Shown piece by piece: positions 10,871 through 62,917 of a DNA stretch of 64,000 nt. Every line of letters starts with the position of its first letter. Positions within the stretch are counted from its first letter, which is position 1. Where the stretch lies: contig OZ244653.1 of assembly GCA_965218795.1 (NCBI GenBank), positions 2,976,001 through 3,040,000 on the forward strand. Reading direction: 5' to 3'. The notes below the pieces were generated by a model. The model ran no database searches. It saw only the letters and a list, made by a program, of their open reading frames with translations, and was not told the origin of the DNA. A program made the position numbers and the translations under genes. The stretch is from a bacterium (GTDB taxonomy: Bacteria; UBA8248; JACPRG01; G963555815).

Positions 10871-10892
10871 CGAGCGTCACGCCGATTGCGCT

Positions 10893-11603: not shown

Positions 11604-11617
11604 AGGAAATCGGTTCT

Positions 11618-11839: not shown

Positions 11840-11864
11840 CGCGCACCTCGTATCTGTTCAGAAA

Positions 11865-37653: not shown

Positions 37654-37938
37654 TTCTTGACGGGGCCGCCCTGCGCGAAGGGCGGGTCGAATAGGACGAA
37701 TAGGAAAAGTGGAACGGGCCGGATGAATCGTTCATGGGGGCGGCCACATGGATATATCTCAACCGGAAGGAAAGTTCCCCACAGTCCCTCATTTGACTAT
37801 AATGCCCTATGAGAGAGTACACGGAAAGGTTCGACCCATCAGTCTTCGAAAAGTGAAGCCGGATGAACGGGTGCGGGTTTCGCGCAACTGTGGATTTTGT
37901 CCGAACCCGGATTCGAGTGATTGGGAGGGGGGGTAGGT

Positions 37939-43364: not shown

Positions 43365-43757
43365 GCCCGGGACATATCAAGAATCACCGTTTTTCCCCGA
43401 GGTTTTTTTTTGGGGCTCTCGCGTGCCGGCCATTTCCCGGATGAGATGATGCGGAGGGCGGTTTTTGAAAAGCGTTTCCCCACATTCCGGACAAGGAGTC
43501 CTCGTTCCGCGCCGAACCGTCACATGGTCGGTCAGATTCCTTCTCGCCGCGAGTAGGCCAAGCCTACAGCTTGGCCGTCAGGAGTTTTCGATGGGGTCCG
43601 GGAGGACGGTTTTTAAAATGCCCCCAGGAAATAGGTCGTCGAGTGTTGCCTGGCTGGTTGGGGTGGTCGCCGCTCAATATATGTTAGGATTGGAAATGAT
43701 ATGGCATCGAAGAGACGTAGGTGCGATGGCGCATAAGGGGAGGTTACGGATTTGGTG

Positions 43758-45195: not shown

Positions 45196-46310
45196 TAGTG
45201 GACTGTAACATTGAGATAGCCAGTAATGTTTGGTACAGTATCATGCATGCCAAACACCCCCATTCAGCTGACTTCCGATGAAAGAGAAGAACTGCAACGG
45301 CGATCCCGTTCGCGCGTGCTGCGGTCCGAAGACGTCCGACGAGCCCAAGTCATTCTGATGCTCGATGCCGGGGAGTCCTATTTGAGGATCCAGCGCGCCG
45401 TGGGCTGCGATGCCCGGTATGTGAGCCGATGGAAGACCCGGTTCCAACAAGAGGGACTGGCCGGCTTGTATTCCAGACATTGCGGTCGAGCGGTTCACAA
45501 GCGCACCCCCCGGCTGGAGGCTCGGATTCTGGACTGGACCAGGCGCCGACCACCGGACGGAGCGACGCACTGGAGTAGTCGCAAGCTGGCGCGGCAGTTG
45601 GGCACCAACCACATGATGGTGGCCCGGGTTTGGAAACGTGCGGGTCTGCAACCCCACCGCATTCAACGTTACATGGCATCGAATGATCCGGACTTTGAGA
45701 AGAAGGCGGCCGATATCATTGGCCTCTATGTCAACCCGCCGCAACACGCCGCCGTTTTCTGTGTGGATGAAAAAACCGCCATTCAGGCCTTGGACCGATT
45801 CGATCCCGTGTTGCCGCTTTCTCCGGGTCGCGCCGAGCGTCACGGTTTCGAGTATTACCGGCACGGAACGCTCTCGCTGTATGCGGCCCTGAATACAAAG
45901 ACCGGCGAGGTCATCGGCAAGACCGCAGCGAGGCACACCAGCGAGGCCTTTGTGGCTTTCCTTTCTGGCATCGTGGCCAGACAACCCAAGCGGCGTGAAA
46001 TTCACATCATCGCAGACAATCTGTCGGCTCATAAGAGCCGCCGCGTGCGACAGTTTCTTGACGCTCACCCGCGCGTGCATTTGCATTTCACCCCAACTTA
46101 TTCCTCTTGGTTGAATCAGGTCGAAATCTGGTTCGCAAAAATCCAACGCGACGTCATTGCCCGCGGCGTCTTCACTTCGGTTCCTGATTTGGCTCGAAAA
46201 CTGATGCGCTATATTCGACAGTGCAACAAGAAACCCAAACCCATCAAGTGGAGCTATACTGATGGCTCACGGCGAATCACCACTAGCAAAGTCTCTGTTA
46301 CAAGGTACTA
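45196..46310 (+). mobile_element. IS630-family insertion sequence
   Basis: Ends CTAGTGGACTGTAACA / TGTTACAAGGTACTAG form an imperfect inverted repeat with a TA/CTAG target on both sides. Confidence 0.88.
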
Positions 46311-46311
46311 G
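45247..46311 (+). CDS. IS630 transposase (apparently intact)
   Basis: THWS.R.LA, VDEK, Y.RHGT, ADN...HK and TPTYSSWLNQVE motifs. Confidence 0.94.
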   Translation: MPNTPIQLTSDEREELQRRSRSRVLRSEDVRRAQVILMLDAGESYLRIQRAVGCDARYVSRWKTRFQQEGLAGLYSRHCGRAVHKRTPRLEARILDWTRRRPPDGATHWSSRKLARQLGTNHMMVARVWKRAGLQPHRIQRYMASNDPDFEKKAADIIGLYVNPPQHAAVFCVDEKTAIQALDRFDPVLPLSPGRAERHGFEYYRHGTLSLYAALNTKTGEVIGKTAARHTSEAFVAFLSGIVARQPKRREIHIIADNLSAHKSRRVRQFLDAHPRVHLHFTPTYSSWLNQVEIWFAKIQRDVIARGVFTSVPDLARKLMRYIRQCNKKPKPIKWSYTDGSRRITTSKVSVTRY

Positions 46312-48693: not shown

Positions 48694-49518
48694 ATGGCGG
48701 AGGCAGCGATCAACGGCGCCAAGATTTGGTACGAGGTCCTGGGGGAAGGCGACCCCATGCTCACCATTCACGGATCCGGGTTCGGGCACGACAACTTCGC
48801 GCCCATTGTTCCCTACTGGGAAGAAGACTTTCAGGTGATTTGGTACGACATGCGGGGGTACGGGCTTTCCGAGCGTCCGATTCAGAAGTACGACATGGAG
48901 GTTTGGGCGGACGACGCGGTGGGGCTCCTCGATCATCTCGGGATCGAGAAGGCGCACATCAACGGAACTTCCATGGGTGGCATGATCGCACTCAAGCTGG
49001 CCGCCAAGTATCCGGACCGGGTGTGGGGTCTGGTCGTCAATTGCGCCATGGCCAAAATGGATTATGCCTCGAAGATCAATTTTCGCACCCACGCGTCGAT
49101 TGCCGAGCGGGAGGGGATGGGTTCCCTCGCCCTGGCTTCGCTATGCGCCGTCCAGGCCTGTTCGTACAACCATCTCGACGGATCGGAGGGGGAAAACACC
49201 GTCGAGTTTATCCGGACGATCCTTGAGAAAAATAATGAAGTGGAGATTTTCAAGAGCGCCTGCCAAGCCATGATTGAAATGGATCTGACGGAAGACCTTG
49301 CGAAAATCACGGCTCCGGCCCTCGTTTACACGGGGGACAAGGACATCATGACGCCCGTGGACCCGGGTCCGAGCGGGATCGGAACCCGCGGCATCGCGGA
49401 GCGGATCCGGAACGCCGAATTGGTTCTCATGCCCGGCTTGTCCCACACGACGATGGTCGAGGCCCCGCAGGAGTGCGCCAAGCTCGTGACGGATTTCCTG
49501 AAGGGTGTCCCGAAATAG
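48694..49518 (+). CDS. Alpha/beta hydrolase
   Basis: HG, DMRGYG.S, nucleophile GTSMGG, GDKD and C-terminal His. Confidence 0.92.
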   Translation: MAEAAINGAKIWYEVLGEGDPMLTIHGSGFGHDNFAPIVPYWEEDFQVIWYDMRGYGLSERPIQKYDMEVWADDAVGLLDHLGIEKAHINGTSMGGMIALKLAAKYPDRVWGLVVNCAMAKMDYASKINFRTHASIAEREGMGSLALASLCAVQACSYNHLDGSEGENTVEFIRTILEKNNEVEIFKSACQAMIEMDLTEDLAKITAPALVYTGDKDIMTPVDPGPSGIGTRGIAERIRNAELVLMPGLSHTTMVEAPQECAKLVTDFLKGVPK

Positions 49519-49542
49519 CCGGGGTTCCGCGGGAGGACTCGC

Positions 49543-50280
49543 CTAGCCCCCCATCCGGATGATCTCCTCCGCACAGATCTCGGGCTCTGAAAACATGACC
49601 TCGTGACAGGTGTCGATCTCTGCGTAGGTGTGCTCGATCCGGCTGGACATCTTCGGGTGCCACCAGCCGTCCGGGAGCGCCTTGTCCTGCGTGCAGAAGA
49701 TGTAGGACATGGACAGATCCATCGAATAGAACTTCTTCAGGTCAACCTTCTGAATATAAGGATGGTACAGGGTCGGCGTAAGCTTCCGGTAAGCCGCCTT
49801 GGCCTTGTCCACGTCCATCCCGTTGGCGAAGAATTCGAGGAACAGGTCTTCGGGGAACATGACGGTGTTGTCCGGACTCTCGGCCGCCAACTGGCCGAAG
49901 GCCTGCTGTTGCTCTTCGGGACAGTTGTCCACGAGCGATTCGCCGTCCTGCAGGATGAAGGCGGACAGGAAGACCAAGTGCGCGAGGCGTTCGGGGATTC
50001 GCTCGGCCGCTTTGGGGATGACGATGCCCGCCATGCTGTGTCCGACCAGAACGACGTTGCTCAGGTCGTTTCCCTCGATGAGCTCCACGACGGCGGTGGG
50101 GTAATCGTCATAACGCACGTTGGGACGTTCGGGGATCCTCGCTCCGTGGCCCGGGAGGTCGAGTGCGTACGCCTTTTTCCCCCGCTTCTCCAGGTGGGCG
50201 ATGACTTCTTCCCAGCAGAAGGCCCCGTGGCAGGACCCGTGAACCAACACGTAATTTTTTTCGCCGTTGTTCTCAGTCAT
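49543..50280 (-). CDS. Alpha/beta hydrolase (methylesterase-like)
   Basis: LVHG..HGA.CW, DLPGHG and GHSMAG motifs. Confidence 0.92.
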   Translation of the reverse strand: MTENNGEKNYVLVHGSCHGAFCWEEVIAHLEKRGKKAYALDLPGHGARIPERPNVRYDDYPTAVVELIEGNDLSNVVLVGHSMAGIVIPKAAERIPERLAHLVFLSAFILQDGESLVDNCPEEQQQAFGQLAAESPDNTVMFPEDLFLEFFANGMDVDKAKAAYRKLTPTLYHPYIQKVDLKKFYSMDLSMSYIFCTQDKALPDGWWHPKMSSRIEHTYAEIDTCHEVMFSEPEICAEEIIRMGG

Positions 50281-50396
50281 GGATGACCTCCTTGAATGCA
50301 AGTCTGAAGCGCATCGACCCCGCCCTCATTATGATCGACCTGACGGCAAGGATCGAACCTTCCCCGCTTGGACCCTTCCGAGATACCCGTGAGACA

Positions 50397-51254
50397 CTAC
50401 CCCCATTCCACGTGGCGTAATGCCTTGAATACGGAGACATTCGCCTCGATCGGATGAGAAACGAGGACATCATCCGTTGCGGTGAGAAAAACCGGATGGG
50501 ACCGGGAGCCGACTTCCGATACGTACTGCTTCAGGAGCTCCGGTGATTCAAAGCATTCCGCGGGTATGAATGCACCCGCGCGGGATTCGCCGGATATCCC
50601 CTGCAATCCGATCTGTGGTTGGAAAAGAAGGGCATCGGCCTGGAGAAGCGAAAAGGCATTGTAGTACTTGACGGTGTTGAACACGGGCTCCGCAACGCCG
50701 GCCGCTTCCTCCACTCCCGCGGTCTCCTCCAGAAGGACGACCTCCGCCCCTGCCTTACAGACCGCTTCCGCGAGCATGCGCGTCAGATCCACCGTCTCCG
50801 GAAGCAGATCGGGCCGATCCAGGCAGTCCCCGCCGCACAGCCCCATTGGCCCGGGAATGACGGCCAGGATTGGGATCTGCCTTCGCAATTCAATTTTCAA
50901 TCTTCGGATCACTTCCAACAGGACGGTGACAGGACCGTTCGAGAGCGCGTCCGGCGGCCACGGGTTTGCCCGCGGGGAAGCCCATTGAATGGCCGGACCC
51001 GCCGGGGACCAGTCGACTTGCGCCCCGGCGCTCTCAGCGAGAAATGCCGCATCGAACCGGACGCAGACACAATCCACGTCCAGGAGGCTTTGCTGGTCCC
51101 TGAGTGAACGGGTCAGGCGGGTGGGGTCTTGCGCCAGGAGGTTGGGGGCTGTCCCATCCAAACGGGATGCATGATAGAAGGCCAGGGGTAGAAGGGGCGG
51201 ACGAGGGCAGGGCGCACCCCGGAAGAATGCCCTCACCAACTGCCTGGACGACAT
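50397..51254 (-). CDS. apcE: UROD/MetE-fold protein, probable acetophenone carboxylase epsilon-subunit homologue
   Basis: 285 aa with UROD-like segments (LAE..GA.V.W, PGP). Occupies the fifth position of the apc gene order; the assignment rests mostly on synteny. Confidence 0.55.
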   Translation of the reverse strand: MSSRQLVRAFFRGAPCPRPPLLPLAFYHASRLDGTAPNLLAQDPTRLTRSLRDQQSLLDVDCVCVRFDAAFLAESAGAQVDWSPAGPAIQWASPRANPWPPDALSNGPVTVLLEVIRRLKIELRRQIPILAVIPGPMGLCGGDCLDRPDLLPETVDLTRMLAEAVCKAGAEVVLLEETAGVEEAAGVAEPVFNTVKYYNAFSLLQADALLFQPQIGLQGISGESRAGAFIPAECFESPELLKQYVSEVGSRSHPVFLTATDDVLVSHPIEANVSVFKALRHVEWG

Positions 51255-51483
51255 TGTGCAACCTCGGTGAATGATTCGATTTGAGCTTCCGGGACGGTTT
51301 CCGGTCCAAAGAAAAGAATCCCCGCGGCGTGTCGTCCGCAGGGATTCTCCTGATTTCTCTCGAACCCTTCGGCACCCTGCGAATCACGCCCGTGGATGAA
51401 GATGGAGACCGCGTTCCCGGGCCGAACGGAGAGCACTTCACCCCCGGTTGCGGCTTCTCCGCCGGCCTTGCGTCCGGTCCCGT

Positions 51484-53541
51484 CTAAATCCGGATGACCT
51501 CGCGGTTCTTTTCGGCGTCGGGCCAAGTCCCATAGTACTTCAGGGCTTGGGGATGCGGGCGTTTCTCTGACCACTCCTTGATGAACTCGCCGTAGGGTTT
51601 GCCCTGGCTGAGGCGGGCTTCCCGTTCCGCTTTGCGCAGACGCTCGGTCTCCTCGACGTTCGCCTTCAGGGTTTCCCGATCGTAGGCGACCTGATAGACC
51701 TTCTCCGCCGTCCAATGCGTGATGGCTTTGTTCCGCAAATCTTCCATGACCCTCTCGGGCGGCCGCTCCAAGACGTCGCCGTAGCCCCCTCCCCCCTGGG
51801 TGCTGGAGGTAATGACCTCCCCGCGTCGGACGATGCGCGCCGGGCGGGTCTGGTGCTCCCGAATGATTTCACCCCCGAAAGGGTTGTCCTCGATAAGGTC
51901 ATGGTCATTATCCGGCAGGAGGACCTCTCCCTTCATGAGCTGGGCCTGGACATCGGTATTGACCACTCGGATGGCCGGAACGACGGTCTCCGAATACCCG
52001 CCGAACAGGCCGCAAGTGGTGGGCAGCTTGGATTCTTTGGCCGTGGCCGTAAATACCGCATGCGGGGCCTGATGGACCGTATACGCCACCGCCAAGCCGA
52101 CCCCCCCCCGGTACTTCCCGTATCCGCCGCTGTCGGGCATGGACTTTTGATAGAGGTGCAGCACCGGGAAGGCCCGCTCGATGTCCTCCACGTCGGGCCC
52201 CTTGCCCCATGGCGCGTGGGGGAACCCGAAGACGTCCACCCCGTCCTCGCCGTATCGGGCGGCCAGCCCCCAGGCGTTCAAGGGGAAGGCCATGAAGTCG
52301 ACGATCTTGGCCCCGTGCTGGTTGACGCACGTGATCATCGGAGCGGCCGAGTTGGAGGAAGCAAACCCGCAGACCAGACTTCGCTGCGGGCTGTCAAACA
52401 TCATCTTGGAAAAAACGACCGCCAGGAGAGGAAAAACGGCCGACGCCGTAATGGGCGAGCAGGAAATAGCGGCCTCCGGATCCGGGTCCATGATGGTGCC
52501 CTTCGGAATGATGTAATCGATGGGATCCATCGAACCCGCGGAAATGGGGAAATCATGGAAGGGGAACGCATAGAGATAATGAGCGCAGTGAGCGCGAACG
52601 CTGGGGGACAGAGACTGAAAGCTCCCCTCGTGCTCCGGTGAAGTGCCCGTCATATCGATGACGATCCGATCGCCCTTCTTGTGGATGGCGAGGGGAACCC
52701 GCAGCAGCGCGGCCTCGGAACCGGTCGTATCGATGAACACGACGTGGCGGTACGTCCCGTCGTTCCATTCACTGATTCGCTTGCGGGCGCCGTCCGCGGA
52801 CTCCTTGATCTGCTTCAGAAACAACATCCGGAGGAACTCATTGCCCTTCTTCTGGGCCAAGTTCTGCATGCGGACGCGGATGCGGTCGCAGGCCGCCACC
52901 CGGGCCTTCACGTCGGTGACCTGCATCCGCGGCGCGCGCGACATGAAGTTCTCCATCATCTTCAGTAGATCGGCCTTGAGCTGGTACCCCTCGCCGATCT
53001 TGATGGGGGTGAGCTTCATCCCCTCGTCGTGCCGGGTAATGGCCGTGGTGATCTCCCCGCCGGGCTCCTTGCCCCCCGTCTCCGACTGATGGGCGCCCAC
53101 GACGGTCCACGCGACGAGGGCATCCCCGTTGAAGATGGGCATAATGGCGAACTGATCGGGGTTGTGGATGCCGCCGTAAATCGCTTCGTTGCAGTAATAG
53201 ACGTCCCCCTCGTTCACCTGGACCGTTGGCTCATCCTTGAAATATTTCAGGATGAACTTGACCGGAATCTGCCCGGTGACGGTGTGAAGGTAGGTGCCGC
53301 AAACGGAAGTGACCAGGTCGCCCTCGGCCGTATAGATCCCCGCCATGGAATCGCCCGAGTGGAGCATGCTGGAGATGCCCATCTTGGTCATCACGGCCTT
53401 GCCTTCTTCGACAATGAGGACGAGGTTTTCCGAGTAAATCTCGTAATCGCCCGGGGACAGCTCTTCGATGGACTTCATCGCCTCTCGCGTGACATCCGAA
53501 GGTTTCAGCCCCTGCTCGACGAGATCCATATCAAAGGACAT
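51484..53541 (-). CDS. apcD: Hydantoinase B/oxoprolinase-family subunit, acetophenone carboxylase ApcD-like
   Basis: CGTYLH, YGGIHNPDQ, H..ETG..EPGG and GGGGYGDVLER motifs. Confidence 0.8.
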   Translation of the reverse strand: MSFDMDLVEQGLKPSDVTREAMKSIEELSPGDYEIYSENLVLIVEEGKAVMTKMGISSMLHSGDSMAGIYTAEGDLVTSVCGTYLHTVTGQIPVKFILKYFKDEPTVQVNEGDVYYCNEAIYGGIHNPDQFAIMPIFNGDALVAWTVVGAHQSETGGKEPGGEITTAITRHDEGMKLTPIKIGEGYQLKADLLKMMENFMSRAPRMQVTDVKARVAACDRIRVRMQNLAQKKGNEFLRMLFLKQIKESADGARKRISEWNDGTYRHVVFIDTTGSEAALLRVPLAIHKKGDRIVIDMTGTSPEHEGSFQSLSPSVRAHCAHYLYAFPFHDFPISAGSMDPIDYIIPKGTIMDPDPEAAISCSPITASAVFPLLAVVFSKMMFDSPQRSLVCGFASSNSAAPMITCVNQHGAKIVDFMAFPLNAWGLAARYGEDGVDVFGFPHAPWGKGPDVEDIERAFPVLHLYQKSMPDSGGYGKYRGGVGLAVAYTVHQAPHAVFTATAKESKLPTTCGLFGGYSETVVPAIRVVNTDVQAQLMKGEVLLPDNDHDLIEDNPFGGEIIREHQTRPARIVRRGEVITSSTQGGGGYGDVLERPPERVMEDLRNKAITHWTAEKVYQVAYDRETLKANVEETERLRKAEREARLSQGKPYGEFIKEWSEKRPHPQALKYYGTWPDAEKNREVIRI

Positions 53542-53564
53542 TTCACTTTCTCCCTTCGACTTCC

Positions 53565-55694
53565 TTAGATCATTTTGAGAAGGCCGTTCTTGAACTCGTC
53601 CATGACGAACCGCCAGCCGGGCTCCACGACGATGGTGGTGTCCTCGGCCTCCACGATGGCCGGCCCGTCGAATGTGTGGCCGACATCGAGCTGTTGACGT
53701 CCGTAGATGGGCGTTTCCTGCAAACCGATGTCCGGCCAGTGGGCCGGACGGGTGCCGATCTGAGCGGCGGATGCATCCGTCTTCGCGGGTTGCAGTTTCT
53801 GGACCTCCGGCTTGGTGCCGGGTACGGTGGCCCGGAGCACGAAATTCTCGATTTCAACGCCGGCCTCCGGCGTCAGCCCCATCGGGCTGTAGGCCTCGCT
53901 GTATTCCTTCTCGAAGGCCGCATAAATCGTACGGATATCGTCCGGCCCCTTGACCTTCATGACCGGGGAAATCGCGCGTTTCACGTTGAGCTGGCCTCCG
54001 AACTTCATGTCCAGCTCGAGCATCCATTGAACCTGGTTGATATCGAGCCCCTCGCCACGAAAGTCCTGCTGTGCCCGATCCATCAATTCATCGACCACGG
54101 CATTGAAGGTGTCGTAATCGTCAAACAGGTTGCTTTTGAAATCCATCAGATGAAGGTGCAGAGACTTTTCGTACAGGTGGACCATGTCCATGGTAGCGGA
54201 GCCGAAGGCGCAAAAGGTCGAGGCGAAGGAGAACACCACAATCGTTTCCAGTTGAGCGAACGAGGCGAAACCGGTGGCGTGGACCGGCCCTGCGCCCCCG
54301 ACGGCAAATAGGATGAACTCCCGCGGATCAAACCCCTTGAGGACGGTTTCCTTGTATATCTCCCCACCCATATTGGCATCGACCACCCGCTTGGCCAGCT
54401 GGGCGGCGTCTTCCACGCTGACGCCAAGGGGGGCGGCCACATGGTCCTGGATCGCCTTGACCGACAGTTCCTTGTTCAGCTTGAGACGGCCTCCATGGAA
54501 GGTGTCCGGGTTGATATAGCCCAGCACCACATCGGCGTCTGTGACGGTGGGCTGGGTCCCGCCCTGGTTGTAGCAGGCGGGGCCGGGGTGAGACCCTGCG
54601 CTTTCCGGGCCCACCTCCACTTGATTCCCCAGAAGGGGGTTCACGCGGATGATGGAGCCGCCGCCTGCGCCGATGGACCGGACGTCGAGCATCGTGGCGT
54701 CCACGACCCATCGGTCGATGATGGGCTGAAACTGGTAAAACCGGGTGCTGCCCTCCGCGACCATCCCGATGTCGAAGCTGGTTCCCCCCATATCGGCGCT
54801 GATCACGTTCTTGTACCCGTATTGGGGCGCCAGGTAGAAACTGCCCATGACGCCGGCGACCGGGCCGCCGTTGTACGTGTTGACGGCCGACGTCTTGAAC
54901 ACCGACGCCATCCCCCCCGTGTTGTGGATCATCATGAGGGGCCGCTTGTACCGGCGCTCGCGCAGCTCCTCGGTGATTCCGATCAGTCCCGCGTACATGG
55001 ACTGATGGAGATAAGCGCTGAGGATGGTCATCATCGTGCGGGGGTATTCGTATATGCGCGGAGCGATCTCGACGGACAGGAACACGGGCATGTTGCCCAG
55101 ATAGGAGTCATTGTATTCCTGGCTGATCAATTCCTTGATGCGCTGCTCGTGCGCCGGGTTGACGAAGGACCACAGAAGAGAGACCACGAACGCCCGGGCC
55201 CCCCGATCCACGAGGCCGCGCAGTTGTTCCAGAAACACTTCCTCGTTCAAGGGGTAGATGACGTCACCGTTGGAGTCGATACGCTCCTTGACCCCCACGA
55301 CCATCGTTTTTTCGATGAGCGGTTCGGGCCGCTGGATTCGGGCGATGTTGCGCGCGAACTTGAACGGGATCCCGTCCGCCCATTGGCTGCACCGGCCGAT
55401 GAACACGGTATCCTCGAATCCGTGGGTCATGATGAGCGCCAACTTGGGCCCCACGCGCTCGATGAGCTTGTTCATGGCCAGCGTGGTCGAGTAGCGGATG
55501 ATCTCCGTCTCGGACAGCAGTTCCTCCACCGGCATGTCCAGGCGGTCGGCGCTTTCCTCGATGGCCTCCATCATGCACACGGACAAGTCGTAGGCCGTCG
55601 TGCGGGCCTTGCACCACACCTCCTCCCCGTTGCGCGTGACGTAACAGTCCGTGAAGGTTCCGCCGATGTCGATATCAATGGCTGTCTGCGCCAT
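53565..55694 (-). CDS. apcC: Hydantoinase A/oxoprolinase-family ATP-binding subunit, ApcC-like
   Basis: IDIDIGGTFTD, IIRYSTT.A.N, DMGGTSFD and GAGGGS motifs. Confidence 0.8.
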   Translation of the reverse strand: MAQTAIDIDIGGTFTDCYVTRNGEEVWCKARTTAYDLSVCMMEAIEESADRLDMPVEELLSETEIIRYSTTLAMNKLIERVGPKLALIMTHGFEDTVFIGRCSQWADGIPFKFARNIARIQRPEPLIEKTMVVGVKERIDSNGDVIYPLNEEVFLEQLRGLVDRGARAFVVSLLWSFVNPAHEQRIKELISQEYNDSYLGNMPVFLSVEIAPRIYEYPRTMMTILSAYLHQSMYAGLIGITEELRERRYKRPLMMIHNTGGMASVFKTSAVNTYNGGPVAGVMGSFYLAPQYGYKNVISADMGGTSFDIGMVAEGSTRFYQFQPIIDRWVVDATMLDVRSIGAGGGSIIRVNPLLGNQVEVGPESAGSHPGPACYNQGGTQPTVTDADVVLGYINPDTFHGGRLKLNKELSVKAIQDHVAAPLGVSVEDAAQLAKRVVDANMGGEIYKETVLKGFDPREFILFAVGGAGPVHATGFASFAQLETIVVFSFASTFCAFGSATMDMVHLYEKSLHLHLMDFKSNLFDDYDTFNAVVDELMDRAQQDFRGEGLDINQVQWMLELDMKFGGQLNVKRAISPVMKVKGPDDIRTIYAAFEKEYSEAYSPMGLTPEAGVEIENFVLRATVPGTKPEVQKLQPAKTDASAAQIGTRPAHWPDIGLQETPIYGRQQLDVGHTFDGPAIVEAEDTTIVVEPGWRFVMDEFKNGLLKMI

Positions 55695-55712
55695 GCTGCT
55701 CCCCTTGTCCGC

Positions 55713-56045
55713 TCAAAGTCCGTGCTTCGCCTTCAGGGCGTCGATGTCCAACTCGATGTCGAACGTGATCGGATGGCCCGGAGGAAGATACTCCACCTCG
55801 AGCATCGTCGCGCAACCCGGACAATAGAACTCGACGATTCGGCACCATTCCGGATCCGGGGCGAACCCGTACTCCCCTTCCACCACCGGGCGGTGAACCT
55901 CTCTCGGGTCCCGGTCGGCCACCAGGCACCCTTCCTTGTAATTCCCTCTGGCCGGACCCAAGCCGTGCCTGCACACCTTGCAATGCCAGAATTCCTTCTC
56001 CAAATCGATTTCCAGGTACTCGGTGATTTGAGGCCGGGCACTCAT
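55713..56045 (-). CDS. apcB: Acetone/acetophenone carboxylase small Zn-binding subunit, ApcB-like
   Basis: TEYL.IDL, CxxC, YK.GCLV, EGEY.FAPD..W.RI.EFYCPGC and EYLPPGHP motifs. Confidence 0.85.
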   Translation of the reverse strand: MSARPQITEYLEIDLEKEFWHCKVCRHGLGPARGNYKEGCLVADRDPREVHRPVVEGEYGFAPDPEWCRIVEFYCPGCATMLEVEYLPPGHPITFDIELDIDALKAKHGL

Positions 56046-58036
56046 GATGACACCTCCAACAACCCGTTTCCGGATGGATCCGTCTTGAACGTGGTCTTAT
56101 CGGGGACGAGCACAGAGGTGTACTCGCTTTCGACGATCGCCGGCCCGGACACCTCGGAGCCGAGCGGGAGGCGATCCAGCCCGTACACCGCCGCCTCGGA
56201 CTCTCCGGAGGGCAGTCGGAGCTTGCGCGTTCCTTGTTGGGCTTGGGCAACGTCGTCGGCCCGTTCTCCTCTCGCCGCGGTGTCCGGATGCGGCGCCGAG
56301 CAGGCCGCGGTGAGGCGCACGATGACGTACTGGCCATTGCCCGGGAGATTGGAAACGAACTGTTCCAGCTCAGGCGGAATCCGGGCGTTTCGAAACGGAG
56401 CCGTCTGTTGAGCCAGAGACTCCATGCCAGCCAGGCAGTCCACATCGAGCGTGCAGCGCATCATCTCCTCGGCGAAGCCTTCCCCCCGCATGTCGCGGGC
56501 AGCCATTGACCTCAGACCTTGGGCGGCCCCGCTCAGCAGGACCGGATCGACAGAGCCGTTTACCACGGGACAGATTTCTTCGTAAACGTGGGTTACGTCC
56601 AGTGTGCTCGCGCCGAAGGCTGAAAATACGGCGCCGAATGCCGGGACGTACACCTCCGCCATGTTCAGCTTTCGAGCCAGGCCCGCCGCCAGCAGCCCGG
56701 CCCCGCCACCAAAGGCGTAGAGGGTGGCGCCTTGCAGCGAAACGCCGGAGGGCAGGGCGACTTGCTCGGCGATCTGTTTTCCGAGCGCGCTTTCAATGGC
56801 GTCCTTCGCCGTGAGTGCAGCTTCGGCCGGATCGACGCCCATGGGCTCGGCCAGCTTGTCCCGGATTACGTCGCGGGCCTTGTCGGCGTCCAACGTCTTC
56901 CGTCCGCCCAGGTATTCATCCGGCGAGAGATAGCCGAGCGTCAGCCAGACATCCGTGGGCGTCACTTCCGACCCGCCCAGTCCAAAGGCGGCCGGTCCGG
57001 GAACCGCTCCCTGGCTGTCCGGACCGACGGAGATCCCGTGGGGGGAGTTGAGCCGGATGATCGAGCCGCCTCCCACGCCGAAAGACACGATCCTCGGTAT
57101 CCTCTGAGCGACCTGGACACCGTTGATGGGCAGATAATCGGCCCTGACGGAGGCGCCTCTGGCAATCAGCGAGACATCGGACGTGGTGCCCCCGACGTCG
57201 ATGCTGAGCACCCGATCGTGACCCACAGCACCCGCGAGTACGTGCGCGCCGCGCACTCCGGCCGCCGGCCCGGATTGATACGTATTGATAACACGGGTCT
57301 TGGCCACCCGGGTGACACCGTAATCCGCAGTGACGATCAACAGGGGGTAGCGGTAGCCGTTCCTCCTGACCTGGTCCTCGGCCTTGTAGAGAGAGTTGAC
57401 CATGCTGCGGTGAAAATAGGCGTTCACGATCGCCGTGTTGGTCCGGATCTCGTCGCTGGGGACTCTCGAAACATGATGGGAAACCAGCATGGGCACCGCG
57501 CCGAGGTAATGGCGGGGGTAGGCCGAGTCGATGGCCCCCCTGACCGCCATTTCATTGGCCGGATTCAGGTGGGCGTTCCGCAGGCTGATCACCAGGGTAC
57601 GGGCCCCGTTCTCCAGCAGAAACCGCACGCGCGCGTCCAGCTGTTCGGGGTCGGGCGGGCGAACCACCTCGCCCTTCCCGCTGGTTTCCTCTGAAATGCC
57701 GACCACCATCTGTGGAGGGACAAACGTTGTGATCGGACTGTCGGAGGCGTTGGAATAGAGGTTCTTCTCGGCGCCTTCGGTTACGATGACGCCCAATTTG
57801 GGGCCGGAGAGCTGGACGGCCGTATTGGTGGCTATGGTGGAAGAAAAACGGATGACGCCGGTCTGCTCGAGCAGCTCCGGTGTTGCGAATCCAAGACGGC
57901 GGGCGCCCTCTTCAATGCAGGAAAAAAAGCAGACTGTGAGATCGTGGGGCGTGGTCTCGACCTTAACGCTGATGCCGCTCCCGGAGATGTATCCGTCCGT
58001 AAAGGTGCCCCCGGTGTCGATATCAATGGTGTACAA
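56042..58036 (-). CDS. apcA: Hydantoinase A-family ATP-binding subunit, ApcA-like
   Basis: YTIDIDTGGTFTD, KV.TTPHD, SSTI.TN and DVGGTT motifs. TTG start after GGGAGG. Confidence 0.8.
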   Translation of the reverse strand: MYTIDIDTGGTFTDGYISGSGISVKVETTPHDLTVCFFSCIEEGARRLGFATPELLEQTGVIRFSSTIATNTAVQLSGPKLGVIVTEGAEKNLYSNASDSPITTFVPPQMVVGISEETSGKGEVVRPPDPEQLDARVRFLLENGARTLVISLRNAHLNPANEMAVRGAIDSAYPRHYLGAVPMLVSHHVSRVPSDEIRTNTAIVNAYFHRSMVNSLYKAEDQVRRNGYRYPLLIVTADYGVTRVAKTRVINTYQSGPAAGVRGAHVLAGAVGHDRVLSIDVGGTTSDVSLIARGASVRADYLPINGVQVAQRIPRIVSFGVGGGSIIRLNSPHGISVGPDSQGAVPGPAAFGLGGSEVTPTDVWLTLGYLSPDEYLGGRKTLDADKARDVIRDKLAEPMGVDPAEAALTAKDAIESALGKQIAEQVALPSGVSLQGATLYAFGGGAGLLAAGLARKLNMAEVYVPAFGAVFSAFGASTLDVTHVYEEICPVVNGSVDPVLLSGAAQGLRSMAARDMRGEGFAEEMMRCTLDVDCLAGMESLAQQTAPFRNARIPPELEQFVSNLPGNGQYVIVRLTAACSAPHPDTAARGERADDVAQAQQGTRKLRLPSGESEAAVYGLDRLPLGSEVSGPAIVESEYTSVLVPDKTTFKTDPSGNGLLEVSS

Positions 58037-58255
58037 ACGCTCGCCTCCCCGCCCCAGGCCCATGGAACCACGTCCAAGACCCGCTTCCACCTTTGGCCAC
58101 GATCGCAATCATCGACCCTTGTCGAGGACTTGAGGGCCGACAATCAATCATCTGAATTGTTTACGGAGAACCACCTGAATTCTCTGAATTCTACCTCATT
58201 GAAAAAAAATTATCTCACAAAAATTCGCTGGAGGGGAATTCCTCATTTCCTCCGC

Positions 58256-59104
58256 TCAAAGCTTCAGAAGCTTCCTGGCGTTCTCGTAAAGGATCTTCCG
58301 ATGCAGTTCTTCCTTGAACCCGGCCTGCCCGAAATCCTTCAGCCATCGTTCCGCCGTGAGAACGGGATAATCGGAACCGAACAGGACCTTGTCCCCCAAT
58401 GCGTAGTTGGCGTAGCGGACCAGGGAAGGCGGAAAGTATTTGGGAGACCATCCGGAAAGGTCCATGTAGACGTTGGACTTGTGCATGGCGACGGCCAGCA
58501 TTTCCTCCTGCCAAGGCCAGGCCGGATGGACGCCGATAATGGTCAGTTCGGGAAAGTCCGCGGCCACATCGTCCAGATACGGAATGGGCTGGCTGTATTT
58601 GAGCTTCATGCCCAGGCCGCCGGGAGCCCCCGCCCCGACCCCGCACATCCCCATGTGGAAGATGCAGGGAAGTTCCAGTTCCGCGCATTTCTCCCAGAGA
58701 GGATAGAATCGGTGGTCGTTCATGTAGAAAGCCTGCTCGCTGGCATGAAACTTCATGCCGATCAGTCCGAGGTCGCGCACGCGCTCGACCGCTTGTTTCC
58801 CTTTCCAGGGATCCACGCTCCCGAATCCGAGAAAAATATCCGGGTGCTTCTTGACGGCCGCGGCCACATGATCGTTCGAGACGGCGGGGGTGCCGAAGTG
58901 GCTCTCGCAATCCAGCGCCAACAAAACGGCAATCGTATTCAGCGAGCGGTAGTTGTCGGCTGTTTCGTCCAAACTGACGGGGGGCATCTTCCGCCGGAAA
59001 TACTTTTCGGCGTACTCCTGGAACTTGCCCATCAAGGCAATGTTCGCCTCATCGGCGGGGTGGACATGAATATCGATTGCAGTCGGCTCCCGGATCAGGG
59101 GCAT
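58256..59104 (-). CDS. Amidohydrolase-family protein, aryl-beta-ketoacyl-CoA hydrolase (CouO)-like
   Basis: IDIHVH, GFGSVDP, GAG.PGG.G.KL.YS.P, HP..PWQ.E, HK.NVY.DLSGWSPKYFP and FGSDYP motifs. Confidence 0.75.
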   Translation of the reverse strand: MPLIREPTAIDIHVHPADEANIALMGKFQEYAEKYFRRKMPPVSLDETADNYRSLNTIAVLLALDCESHFGTPAVSNDHVAAAVKKHPDIFLGFGSVDPWKGKQAVERVRDLGLIGMKFHASEQAFYMNDHRFYPLWEKCAELELPCIFHMGMCGVGAGAPGGLGMKLKYSQPIPYLDDVAADFPELTIIGVHPAWPWQEEMLAVAMHKSNVYMDLSGWSPKYFPPSLVRYANYALGDKVLFGSDYPVLTAERWLKDFGQAGFKEELHRKILYENARKLLKL

Positions 59105-59165
59105 GGCTCCTCATCTCTCGTTCTGTGTGAAGAAGGAGTTCCGGTCCGGTGATTCGCCGCCTGCT

Positions 59166-59852
59166 TCAGCCGACGGCCTTGGAGGTCCGGACCTCCAGAG
59201 GTTTCAGATCGTCCGCCACCCTCAGCCGCGGTTCCGTCAATGCCTGCAATTCACCAACGCTTACGCCCGGCAGGAGCTCTCGAAGCCATAGACCGTCTTC
59301 CTCGATGTCGATAACAGCCAAGTCCGTTATGATACGGTTGACAGCGCCCTTGGCCGTCAGGGGGTAGGAGCATTCCCTGACGATCTTCGGCGAGCCGTCT
59401 TTGGCGGCGTGGGTCATGATGACGATCAGGTGTTTTGCGCCCGCCGCGATATCCATGGCCCCGCCCATGCCGCCGAACGTCCTCCCCGGCGCCTGCCAAT
59501 TGGCGATGTCGCCTCTTTCGGAGACCTGATAAGCGCCCAGAATGCATACGTCCAGATGGCCGCCGCGAAGCATCGTGAAGGAAAGGTCCGATGGGAAGAA
59601 AGAGGCTCCGGGGAAAAGGGTGACGGGCTCCTTTCCGGCATTGATGAGGTCGATGTCCCGATGACTTCCTTCTGCGTGAGGGCCGATGCCGAGGATCCCG
59701 TTTTCCCCGTGAAGCATGATCTCAATGCTGGGGTCGACGTAACTCCCCACCAAAGTCGGGATCCCCTGGCCGAGGTTCACGTAGTCCCCATCCTTCAGTT
59801 CCTGAGCCGCCCTTCGGGCCAACTCCTCCCTAGTCAACCCAGGTGGGGTCAT
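59166..59852 (-). CDS. 3-oxoacid CoA-transferase subunit B
   Basis: VNLG.GIPT, catalytic Glu in ENG, RGGH.D and GMGGAMD motifs. Confidence 0.93.
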   Translation of the reverse strand: MTPPGLTREELARRAAQELKDGDYVNLGQGIPTLVGSYVDPSIEIMLHGENGILGIGPHAEGSHRDIDLINAGKEPVTLFPGASFFPSDLSFTMLRGGHLDVCILGAYQVSERGDIANWQAPGRTFGGMGGAMDIAAGAKHLIVIMTHAAKDGSPKIVRECSYPLTAKGAVNRIITDLAVIDIEEDGLWLRELLPGVSVGELQALTEPRLRVADDLKPLEVRTSKAVG

Positions 59853-60516
59853 AGCGCTCTCCCTTCACAACGCGTTGAACGAATATGCCGGGCGTCACGA
59901 CGGCCTCGGGCGTGATGTTTCCAACTTCCACGACCTCTTCCACTTCCGCAATGGTGACCCGGGCGGCGGCGGCCATCACGGGATTGAAGTTGCGGCCCGC
60001 CAGTCGATAGACGAGATTGCCCAATCGGTCGGCCTTTTGGGCTTCAATCAATGCGAAATCAGCCGCAAGGGGCAGTTCCAGAACGTACTCCCTCCCGTTG
60101 ATGCGCCGGACTTCCTTGCCTTCCGCTACGGGGGTGCCTACTCCCGTGGGGGTGAAAATGGCTCCCAAGCCCGCTGCAGCGGCTCTCATCCGCTCCACTA
60201 TCGTCCCCTGGGGGACGAGCTCGAGCTCTGTCTCTCCCGCCTTCAACCGCTCTTCGAAGGCGTCACTCGCGCCCGGAACCGGGAAACTCGCGTACAGCTT
60301 CTTGATCTGGTTGTTGCGGAACAGCATGGCGATGCCGCGTTCTTGCGAGCCGGCCGAGTTGGAAATCACGGTCAGGTTTTTGACGCCTTGCCCGGCCAGG
60401 GCGCGGATAAGGTTTTCGGGAACGCCGGAGTCCCCGAAGCCCCCCACCATGATCACGGCTTCGTCCGGTATGTCCGCCACGGCCGCGGCGGTGTTTTGAT
60501 AGGTCTTGTCGATCAT
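59830..60516 (-). CDS. 3-oxoacid CoA-transferase subunit A
   Basis: GGFG..G.P, PQGT..ER.RA, AD..GNL.Y...RNFNP and TPGIFV motifs. Confidence 0.93.
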   Translation of the reverse strand: MIDKTYQNTAAAVADIPDEAVIMVGGFGDSGVPENLIRALAGQGVKNLTVISNSAGSQERGIAMLFRNNQIKKLYASFPVPGASDAFEERLKAGETELELVPQGTIVERMRAAAAGLGAIFTPTGVGTPVAEGKEVRRINGREYVLELPLAADFALIEAQKADRLGNLVYRLAGRNFNPVMAAAARVTIAEVEEVVEVGNITPEAVVTPGIFVQRVVKGERYDPTWVD

Positions 60517-60698
60517 GGGTCGATTCTTCTCGATGGGTCACCCAGTATGGAGGACTCAGCAATGGATGTTGACATAGGATCCCGCCCTCTGTAAAGTATC
60601 GCCACCTTTGCCCAGGCTTTGGGTCGAAAATGGGAAATATCCGGTATCCCAACCGGATAATGGTTTTCGTCACGCGCCGGGCGCTCGCGGGACTCCCA

Positions 60699-61799
60699 AT
60701 GGCCGAAATTCGATTTGAACATGTCTGGAAGCGTTACGGGAACGTCGAGGCGGTCAAGGATCTGAACCTGAAGTGCGAGGACGGCGAGTTCCTCGCGCTG
60801 CTGGGCCCTTCCGGCTGCGGCAAGACCTCCAGCCTGCGGATGCTGGCCGGACTGGAAGTCATTTCCGAGGGTGACCTGTACATCGGCGACAATCGGGTCA
60901 ACGATATCTCGCCGAAGGGCCGGGACATCTCGATGGTCTTCGAGGATTACGCCCTCTATCCCCACATGTCCGTTTACAATAATATTGCGTTTCCCCTCAA
61001 GATCAGGGACTTCGAACGGTCCGAGATCGAGCAGCGCGTCCAGCGCGCGCTGACGATGCTTGGACTGAAGGATATTCGGGATGAGAACGTTCAGCGCCTG
61101 AGCGGGGGCGCGCAGCAGCGTATTTCCATCGGCCGCGCCATTGTACGGGAGCCTCAAGTCCTTCTGATGGATGAGCCCATCTCGCATCTGGACAGCGCGC
61201 ATAAGGTCGAGCTCCGGGGTGAGTTGAAACGGCTTCAGCGCAATCTCGGCGTAACGACAGTGTATGTCACCCACGATCAGATCGAGGCCATCGCCCTGGC
61301 GGACCGGGTGGCCGTGATGAATCTGGGCGTGCTTCAGCAGTTGGGTCCTCCGGAGGAATTGTACGATCAGCCGGCCAACCTGTTCGTTGCCGGTTTCATC
61401 GGGGAGCCGCCGATGAATTTCATTCCATGCGAGGTGGATTCCGTTGGGCGATGCCTGAAGGGTGTTGATTTCGAGGTTCCTGCCTCGAAGGTCCTCCTGG
61501 AAGGTCTGTCCGGTCATGGAGGGAATCGTCTGGTGCTGGGCATCCGGCCCGCGAACCTGAAGATTGAAATGGCGCCTTCAAACGGGCTCCCGCGCGGGAA
61601 GGTGTTTTCTATCGAGCCTCGGGGGGACTCAGCCGTTGTCATGGTGGAGATGGGGTCGCATCGTCTTCTGTCCGAATCGCCTGTCAATCTGGATCTGCAG
61701 GAAGACGCGGTGGTGGGGCTCTCGTTCGACGAAGAGCAAATCCATGTGTTCGAGGCCGAAGGAGGGACTCGCATAACGACTGGTTTGGGAAGGACTTGA
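60699..61799 (+). CDS. Sugar-type ABC ATP-binding protein
   Basis: GPSGCGKT, LSGG, MDEP and VTHDQ motifs. Confidence 0.94.
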   Translation: MAEIRFEHVWKRYGNVEAVKDLNLKCEDGEFLALLGPSGCGKTSSLRMLAGLEVISEGDLYIGDNRVNDISPKGRDISMVFEDYALYPHMSVYNNIAFPLKIRDFERSEIEQRVQRALTMLGLKDIRDENVQRLSGGAQQRISIGRAIVREPQVLLMDEPISHLDSAHKVELRGELKRLQRNLGVTTVYVTHDQIEAIALADRVAVMNLGVLQQLGPPEELYDQPANLFVAGFIGEPPMNFIPCEVDSVGRCLKGVDFEVPASKVLLEGLSGHGGNRLVLGIRPANLKIEMAPSNGLPRGKVFSIEPRGDSAVVMVEMGSHRLLSESPVNLDLQEDAVVGLSFDEEQIHVFEAEGGTRITTGLGRT

Positions 61800-61807
61800 G
61801 CCGGACC

Positions 61808-62917
61808 ATGGGCGCCGTCAGATTGGAAAATATTTGGAAGTCCTTCGGGCATGTGGAGGCCCTGAAAGGGATCGACCTCCCATTCGAATCGGGAGATCTG
61901 ACCGTTCTGCTCGGCCATTCGGGCGCGGGCAAGACCACTATCCTGCGGATGATTGCGGGACTCGAAACCGTCGACCGCGGGGATATCCGAATCAACGGCC
62001 GAGTGGTCAACGACGAACCGCCCCGATCCCGAGGCACCTCGATGGCCTTCGAGAGCTACGCCCTCTACCCGCAGTTGTCCGTCTTCGAGAACATGGCCTT
62101 TTCGTTTCTGGTGGCTGCTGGAGCCAAATGGACGCTGACGGAGGAGGTCCGCGGCAGGGTTCGCGCAATGGCCGAGCTTCTGGAGATCGCTCAACTGCTG
62201 GATCGTCTTCCGCGCCAGCTTTCCGGAGGACAGCGGCAGCGCGTGGCGCTGGGCCGAACCCTCGTCCGCGACGCCGCCGTCCACTTGCTGGACGAGCCGA
62301 TTGCGCATTTGGACGCCAAGCTGCGGCATCAGCTCCGGGGTGGATTGAAGCACTTGCAGCGGGACCGGGGCGCAACGACTGTGTGGACGACGCCGGATCA
62401 ATTGGAAGCGATGTCCATCGCCGATCAGGTGGTCGTTATGAACCACGGGGTTCTTGAGCAATCGGGTCCGCCTTCCGAGCTCTATCAGCATCCGAAAAAT
62501 GAATACGTCGCCCGCAGTCTGGGGGAGCCCCCGATGAACATTCTGTCCTCATCGGTCAGGCGGGCAGACGACGAAATGCAACTCGATATCAATGGGACCT
62601 CTCTGCCGGTTCGGGGGGAGGGCGCGCGCGTGCTGGAGCAATCCAACGGAGACGGACGGATTTCCATGGGAATTCGGCCGACCGATATTTCCGTTCAGGC
62701 CGAGCGGCCTCGGGAACCATCCCTGGAGTCCGAAGTCGTCGTCTTCGAACCGCTCGGACAGTATGGCGTCGTGACTGCCCAGTGCGCTGGGGAGGAGCTC
62801 AAGGTCAAGGTGGGCAAGGGGATCCGCCCTGAGCCCGGGGCCCGGATTTGGCTGGTTCCTCATGCGGAGCGGTATCACTTTTTCAACCCGAGGACTGGAG
62901 AAGCTCTGAGGGCCTAA
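61808..62917 (+). CDS. Sugar-type ABC ATP-binding protein (degenerate H-loop)
   Basis: GHSGAGKT, LSGGQ and LDEP motifs; TTPDQ replaces VTHDQ. Confidence 0.92.
   Translation: MGAVRLENIWKSFGHVEALKGIDLPFESGDLTVLLGHSGAGKTTILRMIAGLETVDRGDIRINGRVVNDEPPRSRGTSMAFESYALYPQLSVFENMAFSFLVAAGAKWTLTEEVRGRVRAMAELLEIAQLLDRLPRQLSGGQRQRVALGRTLVRDAAVHLLDEPIAHLDAKLRHQLRGGLKHLQRDRGATTVWTTPDQLEAMSIADQVVVMNHGVLEQSGPPSELYQHPKNEYVARSLGEPPMNILSSSVRRADDEMQLDINGTSLPVRGEGARVLEQSNGDGRISMGIRPTDISVQAERPREPSLESEVVVFEPLGQYGVVTAQCAGEELKVKVGKGIRPEPGARIWLVPHAERYHFFNPRTGEALRA

Follow-up and report, generated by a model that had tools for sequence, protein, structure and literature searches.

How would the product of a ketone carboxylase be broken down when neither a CoA ligase nor a thiolase is encoded beside it? 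This question is raised by a 64,000-nt stretch (hereafter the window; C1:2976001-3040000) of a 5.17-Mb single-contig genome from an uncultured, Nitrospinota-labelled lineage. On its minus strand, eight genes of the same direction (50397-60516) encode both subunits of a CoA-transferase, an Amidohydro_2 enzyme and five proteins resembling the subunits of acetophenone carboxylase (ApcABCDE) (Table 1). The list of open reading frames (ORFs) and scans with Pfam and NCBIfam confirmed these genes, which a first-pass annotation of the sequence had named in this order, as well as its statement that ligase and thiolase genes are absent from the window. With the queries used, AMP-ligase-like and thiolase genes were found in 16 and three places of the genome, respectively, all of them elsewhere. 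To our knowledge, characterized Apc-type enzymes comprise only one that acts on an aromatic ketone and one that acts on acetone. We propose, with slightly less than even confidence, that this operon allows a methyl ketone to be degraded without a ligase or a thiolase.

In this route, a five-subunit Apc-type enzyme would carboxylate the methyl group of the ketone with ATP and bicarbonate to form a β-ketoacid, as predicted from homology. A class I CoA-transferase (ScoAB) would then turn the β-ketoacid into its CoA thioester; the family of this enzyme is assigned, and its substrate and CoA donor are predictions. Finally, an Amidohydro_2 enzyme related to CouO and HpeF would cleave the β-ketoacyl-CoA in a hydrolytic retro-Claisen reaction to a carboxylic acid and acetyl-CoA, as suggested by homology and by the gene contexts of its relatives. 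An aryl or otherwise bulky methyl ketone is the favoured candidate substrate, because a thiolase would suffice for acetoacetyl-CoA but the operon has a dedicated hydrolase in its place, and because the carboxylase is Apc-like rather than similar to Acr, the Rhodococcus enzyme described below.

The Carboxylase Has the Features of the Acetophenone Carboxylase (Apc) Type

We compared the five carboxylase genes with the features given for Apc-type enzymes by Weidenweber et al. (2017; PMC5214803). The gene order (HyuA', small subunit, HyuA, HyuB, epsilon) is that of apcABCDE and was also present at four other loci (L001, L053, L136 and L138). The ASKHA motifs for phosphate and adenosine (D.GGT..D, D.GGT and G..PGP) were found in both HyuA-type subunits. 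The fingerprint KERIDSNG was located at residue 136 of the ApcC-like protein and was absent from the ApcA-like protein, and KERIDSxG is likewise missing from Apc alpha-prime (PMC5214803). The small ApcB-like subunit has four cysteines in two CxxC pairs (C22/C25 and C75/C78). The ApcD-like protein consists of 685 aa, compared with 684 in Apc, 776 in Acx and 756-776 in Neorhizobium and RHA1, and the ApcC-like protein of 709 aa, compared with 732 in Apc and 717-727 in Acx; both lengths are of the Apc type.

In phmmer searches, the C-like subunit matched Apc (5l9w_B) with 765.7 bits versus 367 bits for Acx, and the D-like subunit matched Apc (5l9w_A) with 513.5 bits versus 118.7 bits for Acx. The epsilon-like protein matched the NCBIfam model of ApcE (E = 4.5e-5), and its top match by sequence in the Protein Data Bank (PDB) was Apc epsilon (9fou_A), a weak one (E = 0.0031). 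Its AlphaFold model (pLDDT 92.5) has a UROD-type barrel, and Foldseek placed chains of 9fou at ranks 2, 3 and 5 (E 1.3e-12; TM 0.69/0.70), behind the MtaA-like 4ay8 at rank 1. The modelled epsilon-like subunit thus appears to be homologous to ApcE; however, since MtaA and UROD score level with Apc epsilon, the fold is shared and specific kinship with ApcE is weak. A metagenome scan with the epsilon protein as the sole query yielded no relative, and a literature search for a paper on the cryo-EM structure of Apc epsilon found none.

Among known systems, ApcABCDE of Aromatoleum aromaticum EbN1 (PDB 5L9W for the core and 9FOU for epsilon; PMC5214803) therefore shares with the window its five genes, their order, the subunit lengths, the motifs, the distinction of alpha and alpha-prime and a UROD-fold epsilon, and it is the best-scoring solved structure by sequence for the C-, D- and epsilon-like subunits. 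The assignment of the last five genes to the Apc type in the first-pass annotation was borne out by these features. Further, the subunits do not group with hydantoinases or lactamases; the four-cysteine small subunit, the duplicated HyuA and epsilon have so far been described only from carboxylases, not from hydantoinases or lactamases (PMC5214803, PMC13677872). Window subunits A-D scored only about one third to two thirds of the NCBIfam Apc equivalog cut-offs, and epsilon scored 23 of 450 bits. Judged from sequence, the window enzyme has all published features of the Apc type, yet it is not an orthologue of Apc, because every subunit is far under the equivalog cut-off.

Comparison with Acetone-Type Carboxylases

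Acr of Rhodococcus aetherivorans, a heterodecameric enzyme with five kinds of subunit that looks like Apc, accepts acetone and aliphatic ketones of C4-C6 for carboxylation, whereas acetophenone is not carboxylated (Muller et al., 2026; PMC13677872). The authors read five-gene operons that adjoin acetoacetate-converting genes (CoA-transferase) as acetone carboxylases and tie the true Apc branch to a benzoylacetate-CoA ligase (PMC13677872). Acr and such proteobacterial operons have five subunits including epsilon and neighbouring CoA-transferase A/B genes in common with the window. No homologue of the benzoylacetate-CoA ligase gene (bal) was found beside the window carboxylase and no AMP-binding gene among the scanned window ORFs; unlike Aromatoleum, the window has a CoA-transferase and a CouO-like hydrolase instead.

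We used as comparators the five-gene plasmid clusters of Rhodococcus jostii RHA1 (pRHL2), Neorhizobium petrolearium (L052) and Haloterrigena alkaliphila (L050). RHA1, whose pRHL2 subunit sizes match those reported for Acr, and Neorhizobium, whose cluster carries CoA-transferase A/B and sigma-54 regulator genes, were chosen as stand-ins for the Acr type on account of the subunit sizes in PMC13677872; the comparison thus covers the Acr type through these two stand-ins. The large subunits A, C and D of the window shared 28-40% identity in blastp with those of RHA1 and Neorhizobium; between the latter two, the four core subunits are 48-64% identical. For D, the window was 31-32% identical to both, versus 53% between the two, and is 70-90 aa shorter. 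The window and Haloterrigena were 42-47% identical in C and D. The scores against Apc delta (5l9w_A) were 513 bits for the window, 604 for Haloterrigena and 292 for RHA1. Those against the NCBIfam Apc models A/B/C/D/E were 426/174/829/557/23 for the window, 332/145/553/299/none for RHA1 and 343/132/569/322/none for Neorhizobium; the ApcE model detected epsilon of the window and of Haloterrigena but not of RHA1 or Neorhizobium.

Seven residues of Apc (L81, F281, N282, P285, I333, Q344 and T345) have been tentatively assigned to its ketone pocket. Their counterparts are M, Y, N, P, I, D and V in the window and T, I, H, P, I, H and L in both RHA1 and Neorhizobium. The window residues tentatively resemble those of Apc and not those of the Rhodococcus/Neorhizobium type, although two of the seven differ non-conservatively from Apc (Q344 to D and T345 to V). 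Because Apc scores, detection of epsilon and pocket residues are nearer Apc than those of RHA1 and Neorhizobium, and because identity to these two is low, sequence comparison places the window enzyme in an Apc-proximal branch outside the acetone-type group, as sampled by the stand-ins.

The Haloterrigena cluster, the closest plasmid-borne Apc-like one, differs in its arrangement: epsilon (UROD family) is second, in the order A-epsilon-B-C-D, beside a gene for an IclR regulator (L050, 3470-11061). No relative of the amidohydrolase was found on this plasmid.

The Amidohydrolase Is Related to Enzymes of cou and hpe Clusters

CouO of R. jostii RHA1 is an enzyme of the amidohydrolase superfamily that closes the β-oxidative deacetylation of hydroxycinnamates to aromatic acids (PMC4737184). 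HpeF, which is 95% identical to CouO, is predicted to be the hydroxyphenyl-β-ketopropionyl-CoA hydrolase of the pathway for acetovanillone and 4-hydroxyacetophenone (PMC9618137). The window amidohydrolase has the Amidohydro_2 fold with the HxH, His, His and Asp ligands of this type. When ten sequences including members of cou and hpe clusters were aligned, 60 columns were invariant, among them the metal ligands H13, H15, H150, H193 and D245.

Relatives of the window amidohydrolase were found in 157 plasmid records, the best of them 46-50% identical over the full length. We fetched seven of these plasmid contexts, which were hand-picked rather than random, one of them for its annotation. Two are of the hpe type: that of P. 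putida YC-AE1 (L127) encodes a Tm-1-like ATP-binding protein, biotin-carboxylase components, a HAD hydrolase and the amidohydrolase, and that of R. leguminosarum (L129) a biotin carboxylase, a HAD hydrolase, an acetoacetate-CoA ligase and the amidohydrolase. The window enzyme and the hpe-type plasmid amidohydrolases share 48-49% identity. Two contexts are of the cou type (L124 and L130), with feruloyl-CoA synthase, enoyl-CoA hydratase and a MarR regulator, and in L124 also a dehydrogenase; the amidohydrolase of L124 is annotated as '4-hydroxyphenyl-beta-ketoacyl-CoA hydrolase'. The remaining contexts comprised an AMP-ligase with a short-chain dehydrogenase/reductase (SDR) and a MaoC dehydratase (L125), β-oxidation genes (L128) and an uninformative one (L126). 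In the ten-sequence alignment, the window enzyme was 47-51% identical to these plasmid relatives. Further, six contexts of relatives of 48-59% identity from metagenome-assembled genomes (MAGs) were scanned, and CoA-ester enzymes were encoded within about 6 kb in five of them.

In a tree of 43 rows, the window amidohydrolase, those of L001 and L002 and a 78%-identical paralogue of the same genome formed a firm clade. This clade, the cou/hpe clade, a Tectomicrobia protein and a Thermomicrobium protein made up a group of 11 rows with support of only 84/91. Thus, the reading of the enzyme as 'CouO-like' is supported through its near relatives in cou and hpe clusters (46-50% identity and shared metal ligands) rather than through the sequence of CouO itself. 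In this tree, the window protein belongs to a clade that neighbours the cou/hpe clade. Its gene accompanies those of a CoA-transferase and a carboxylase, whereas CouO goes with a β-oxidation set. Its closest solved structure is 3irs (89.5 bits), the uncharacterized Bordetella protein BB4693, for which a literature search found nothing.

Two related loci were seen. The gene of the 78%-identical paralogue is convergent to a HyuA-HyuB-M20 peptidase set, with an NMT1-type binding protein nearby (L047, G000:C1:4889001-4908000, positions 6765-13549). In L002, a Nitrospinota-labelled MAG, scoA-scoB-amidohydrolase is followed by a gene for an NMT1 binding protein.

The CoA-Transferase and the Spread of the Gene Linkage

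Both ScoA and ScoB scored above their family cut-offs and belong to the class I 3-oxoacid CoA-transferases (ScoAB/PcaIJ). Window ScoA was 43.6% identical to the CoA-transferase A encoded beside the Neorhizobium five-gene cluster. ScoB of the window reads G-E-N-G where that of Neorhizobium reads S-E-N-G; we take this (S/G)ENG motif of subunit B to hold the catalytic Glu.

Gene linkage was examined by two scans. The amidohydrolase-centred scan gave 39 loci, all from species-representative genomes; the ApcD-centred scan, with a three-sequence alignment as the query, gave 71 loci from metagenomes, of which many are short. Of the amidohydrolase-centred loci, a single one shows full synteny, namely L001, which belongs to the same genus and is 90% identical. 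The set scoA-scoB-amidohydrolase was present in three of the 39 (L001, L002 and L028), two of which, L002 and L028, lack Apc genes, and the amidohydrolase adjoins a HyuA/HyuB pair in L003 and L037. In the ApcD-centred loci, scoA or scoAB was present in 3 of 71 and a recognizable epsilon in 2 of 71. The position of the CoA-transferase genes relative to the Apc-like genes varies: they are upstream in the window, in L001 and in G001 and G002, two genomes of the sister genus, whereas they follow epsilon in L054, apcD in L097, and both apcD and apcA in L099. Epsilon was found in 5 of 51 genomes of the window's phylum, all of one family, in which it is present in five of the seven genomes, including that of the window.

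In the sister-genus genomes, scoA and apcA are separated by 297 nt, compared with 1775 nt in the window, where scoB and the amidohydrolase gene fill the interval. Further, apcA of G002 is broken into three parts and the epsilon gene of G001 has an in-frame TAA; these clusters may be decaying, or an assembly error may be present. The link of carboxylase and transferase is thus recurrent, and the three-way link with the amidohydrolase is confined to one genus (two species-level genomes). Accordingly, the expectation that the linkage is not unique to the window genome held through L001, but it extends to only this one further species-level genome, of the same genus.

Two metagenome contigs (L093 and L099) showed a different arrangement, in which the Apc-like genes have the order B-C-D-A (D about 40% identical) and genes for a PEP-utilizer-domain protein and a UPF0261 protein stand upstream of them; this upstream pair may be a kinase akin to that of hpe clusters. 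Downstream of the Apc-like genes, L099 has scoA-scoB, a DUF35-like OB-fold protein and an SCP-x-type thiolase, and L093 has FAD/CCG oxidase-like genes and a thiolase.

Weighing of the Proposed Route

Several observations weigh against the proposed route. No subunit reached the NCBIfam Apc equivalog cut-offs, the assignment of the ketone pocket is tentative in the words of its own authors (PMC5214803), and the gene context alone would place the window on the acetone side. The best 120 of the 758 ApcD relatives at E<=1e-60 are 47-88% identical and all uncharacterized; their depositor labels are Nitrospinota, Acidimicrobiales, Solirubrobacter, Tectomicrobia, Acuticoccus and Bacillus. The four relatives of 60-70% identity whose flanks were scanned, on metagenome contigs (L063, L077, L082 and L088), are encoded in four-gene ABCD sets beside GntR and 3-hydroxyacyl-CoA-dehydrogenase-like genes, and their flanks contained no CoA-transferase, no related amidohydrolase and no recognizable epsilon. 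L063 and L082 also have a urocanase-like gene, and some of the four have M20 peptidase, Amidohydro_1 or purine/cytosine permease genes. The window amidohydrolase stands outside the cou/hpe clade proper, which has support of 100/100 without it in a tree that does not include RHA1 CouO, and HpeE and HpeF were predicted, not assayed, in PMC9618137. The linkage itself is rare: just one of the 39 amidohydrolase-centred loci has full synteny, none of the 71 ApcD-centred loci, many of them short, has the amidohydrolase, and the sister-genus clusters (L138 of G001 and L136 of G002) consist of scoA-apcABCDE without scoB or the amidohydrolase gene. Finally, PobA, BoxB and Oah were not detected above cut-off in the genome. 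A protocatechuate 3,4-dioxygenase beta gene and a gene of the benzoate-CoA-ligase family were detected above their cut-offs, and this aromatic-degradation gene content is compatible with an aryl ketone as the substrate but not decisive.

It is somewhat unlikely, in our judgement, that the operon instead encodes a carboxylase for aliphatic ketones of the acetone/butanone type with an acetoacetate CoA-transferase, the acetoacetyl-CoA being cleaved by a housekeeping thiolase encoded elsewhere and the amidohydrolase and the alpha/beta hydrolase serving another purpose. The substrate range of Acr and the link of adjacent acetoacetate-converting genes to acetone (PMC13677872) favour this explanation, as do the presence of ScoAB and absence of an AMP-ligase in the window, the similar pairing with a CoA-transferase in Neorhizobium and the three thiolases of the genome. 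However, the subunits are nearer Apc than those of RHA1 and Neorhizobium (513 versus 292 bits and 31-32% identity for D, 685 versus 756-776 aa, and the pocket residues), and a CouO-family hydrolase encoded between the transferase and the carboxylase would be left unexplained. The retention of scoA-apcABCDE without the amidohydrolase in G001 and G002 also fits an acetone-type enzyme; yet these clusters lack scoB as well and carry the broken apcA (G002) or the interrupted epsilon (G001), so that they may be decaying rather than functional. A quite improbable explanation is that the Apc-like complex is an ATP-dependent enzyme for another carbonyl or heterocyclic substrate, with a chemistry not yet described, in a genome with a greatly expanded hydantoinase/oxoprolinase family. 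HyuA-like and HyuB-like genes indeed occupy about 22 and 21 places of the genome, with seven matches to Acetone_carb_G, and the flanks of the 60-70% ApcD relatives described above point in the same direction. So do the 78%-identical amidohydrolase paralogue beside its HyuA-HyuB-M20 set and the 62%-identical amidohydrolase of L003, which precedes a HyuA-HyuB pair; according to the authors of the Apc structure, function in the Apc branch cannot be read from sequence (PMC5214803). Against this explanation, the four-cysteine small subunit, the duplicated HyuA and epsilon are carboxylase features in the two studies cited above, and a class I 3-oxoacid CoA-transferase fits a β-ketoacid product.

The amidohydrolase could also act before the carboxylase as a β-diketone C-C hydrolase, producing a methyl ketone and a carboxylate from a 1,3-diketone; the methyl ketone would then be carboxylated, CoA-activated and cleaved by a thiolase encoded elsewhere; this order of events seems very improbable to us. 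SRAH of Sterolibacterium denitrificans, an Amidohydro_2 enzyme that hydrolyses a cyclic 1,3-diketone, is a precedent (PMC11780191), the distant clade of 29-34% identity in the amidohydrolase-centred scan includes a Sterolibacterium MAG, and the amidohydrolase gene precedes the carboxylase genes. In contrast, the window enzyme is much closer (46-50%) to the cou- and hpe-cluster enzymes than to this distant clade, a comparison that did not include SRAH itself, and the adjacency of scoAB and amidohydrolase genes without a carboxylase in L002 and L028 ties the amidohydrolase to CoA chemistry. Within the ligase-free and thiolase-free route that we propose, we consider it possible but rather doubtful that the transferase takes CoA from the acetyl-CoA released by the hydrolase, so that this lineage would degrade aryl or heteroaryl methyl ketones by a self-contained route that recycles its CoA.

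Extent of the Operon and Neighboring Genes

The genes overlap by 23 nt (scoA/scoB) and 4 nt or are separated by gaps of 18-229 nt, and this spacing fits an operon. An alpha/beta hydrolase gene lies 95 nt beyond the epsilon gene on the same strand and is conserved (84%) at the equivalent position in L001; it is therefore probably the ninth member. The longest ORF of the apcA-like gene begins with TTG at 58108; homology begins only at about residue 25, and the true start is probably the internal Met16, near 58063.

TABLE 1. Features of the putative ketone carboxylase operon and its upstream region (window positions).
Feature	Position	Strand	Basis
scoA-like, 3-oxoacid CoA-transferase subunit A, first gene of the operon	59830-60516	-	PF01144 233.8 bits; TIGR02429 308.4 bits (cut-off 128.5)
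scoB-like, 3-oxoacid CoA-transferase subunit B	59166-59852	-	TIGR02428 293 bits (cut-off 243.55)
Amidohydro_2 enzyme, near relative of CouO/HpeF-type β-ketoacyl-CoA hydrolases	58256-59104	-	PF04909 163.4 bits; no NCBIfam model
apcA-like, second HyuA-type ATP-binding subunit (Apc alpha-prime type)	56042-58108	-	Best NCBIfam model ApcA, 426 bits (cut-off 1250)
apcB-like, small zinc subunit	55713-56045	-	PF08882 Acetone_carb_G 125.7 bits; NCBIfam ApcB 173.6 bits (cut-off 250)
apcC-like, HyuA-type (Apc alpha type, presumed ketone kinase)	53565-55694	-	NCBIfam ApcC 829 bits (cut-off 1500)
apcD-like, HyuB-type core subunit	51484-53541	-	NCBIfam ApcD 556.5 bits (cut-off 1500)
Epsilon-like subunit, UROD fold	50397-51254	-	PF01208 30.6 bits (cut-off 23.9); NCBIfam ApcE 22.9 bits (cut-off 450)
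Alpha/beta-fold hydrolase, probable ninth gene	49543-50301	-	PF12697 and PF00561
Divergent intergenic region between scoA and the plus-strand ABC-transporter operon	60517-60699	.	Sequence inspected

Upstream, an ABC-transporter operon begins divergently about 180 nt from scoA, with plus-strand genes for ABC_tran/TOBE ATPases (60630-61799 and 61796-62917) followed by an SBP_bac_1 gene from 62969. Two minus-strand open frames at 60513-62491 (334 and 325 aa) mimic operon genes with overlapping stop and start codons; we rejected them as members, as they match no family, are unusual in composition and run antisense to the two ABC ATPase genes. The operon therefore begins at scoA. A scan of 49000-61000 for promoters and terminators gave fewer sites than shuffled sequences and none on the operon strand; one sigma-70-like site was found in the region between scoA and the ABC-transporter operon, on the plus strand only.

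Elsewhere in the window, an IS630-family transposase gene (45226-46311) is located between the genes for a molybdenum hydroxylase FAD-binding subunit (43752-44621) and an XdhA-like molybdopterin subunit (46336-48609), and a second complete Mo/FAD/2Fe-2S gene set is present at 37921-41656. Six of the seven Acetone_carb_G matches in the genome lie inside open frames of 735-1099 aa, which suggests that the zinc subunit is fused to a large subunit there. One further locus (L048, G000:C1:1080001-1099000, positions about 5305-11448) has a second ketone-carboxylase-like set, consisting of an AMP-binding CoA ligase, HyuA and a HyuB with a C-terminal Acetone_carb_G fusion.

Relation to the Hpe Pathway and Implications

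The Hpe pathway of Rhodococcus rhodochrous GD02 (hpeHICBADEF; PMC9618137) proceeds from ketone carboxylation through a CoA thioester to a hydrolase homologous to CouO. Hpe and Acv of Sphingobium SYK-6 (bioRxiv 10.1101/2022.04.28.489975) share the logic of the route proposed here, in which an aryl methyl ketone would be converted through a β-ketoacid and a CoA thioester to an aryl acid and acetyl-CoA. Hpe and Acv both rely on a kinase, a HAD phosphatase and a carboxylase that depends on biotin, whereas the window has a biotin-independent Apc-type complex and no kinase or phosphatase gene in the operon; Hpe uses an AMP-forming CoA synthetase, whereas the window has a class I CoA-transferase. Acv was rejected as an Apc-like precedent since its carboxylase is biotin-dependent, and it is related through pathway logic only.

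Each part of the operon thus belongs to a known family, and the novelty lies in the combination of genes: the kinase, biotin carboxylase and phosphatase of Hpe are replaced by an Apc-type complex, and its synthetase by a class I CoA-transferase. A literature search on acetophenone carboxylase with CoA transferase and amidohydrolase found no description of this combination among the papers listed, as judged by titles and the beginnings of abstracts, and one on acetophenone carboxylase with Nitrospinota, Nitrospinae or Tectomicrobia gave no match among the papers listed. The proposal of a 'candidate new aryl-ketone pathway' in the first-pass annotation is partly supported: the gene combination is new, the pathway logic is that of Hpe, and an aryl ketone is a favoured candidate substrate.

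The clade of the window carboxylase has no member of known substrate, and the two family-informative enzymes that would act after it give a concrete, testable substrate hypothesis. If the proposed route is true, aryl methyl ketones would be converted to aryl acids by three enzyme systems with no kinase, phosphatase, biotin enzyme, ligase or thiolase, which would be of interest for funnelling acetophenone-type lignin monomers. It would also mean that hydrolytic retro-Claisen cleavage of the CouO type was recruited to ketone carboxylation on more than one occasion. If, further, CoA is recycled from acetyl-CoA, CoA would cycle catalytically without ATP for a ligase and without a thiolase, and the products would be an aryl acid and acetate. 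The window carboxylase would then be the first of the Apc type that is followed by a hydrolytic instead of a thiolytic cleavage, and the logic of Hpe would have been reinvented independently.

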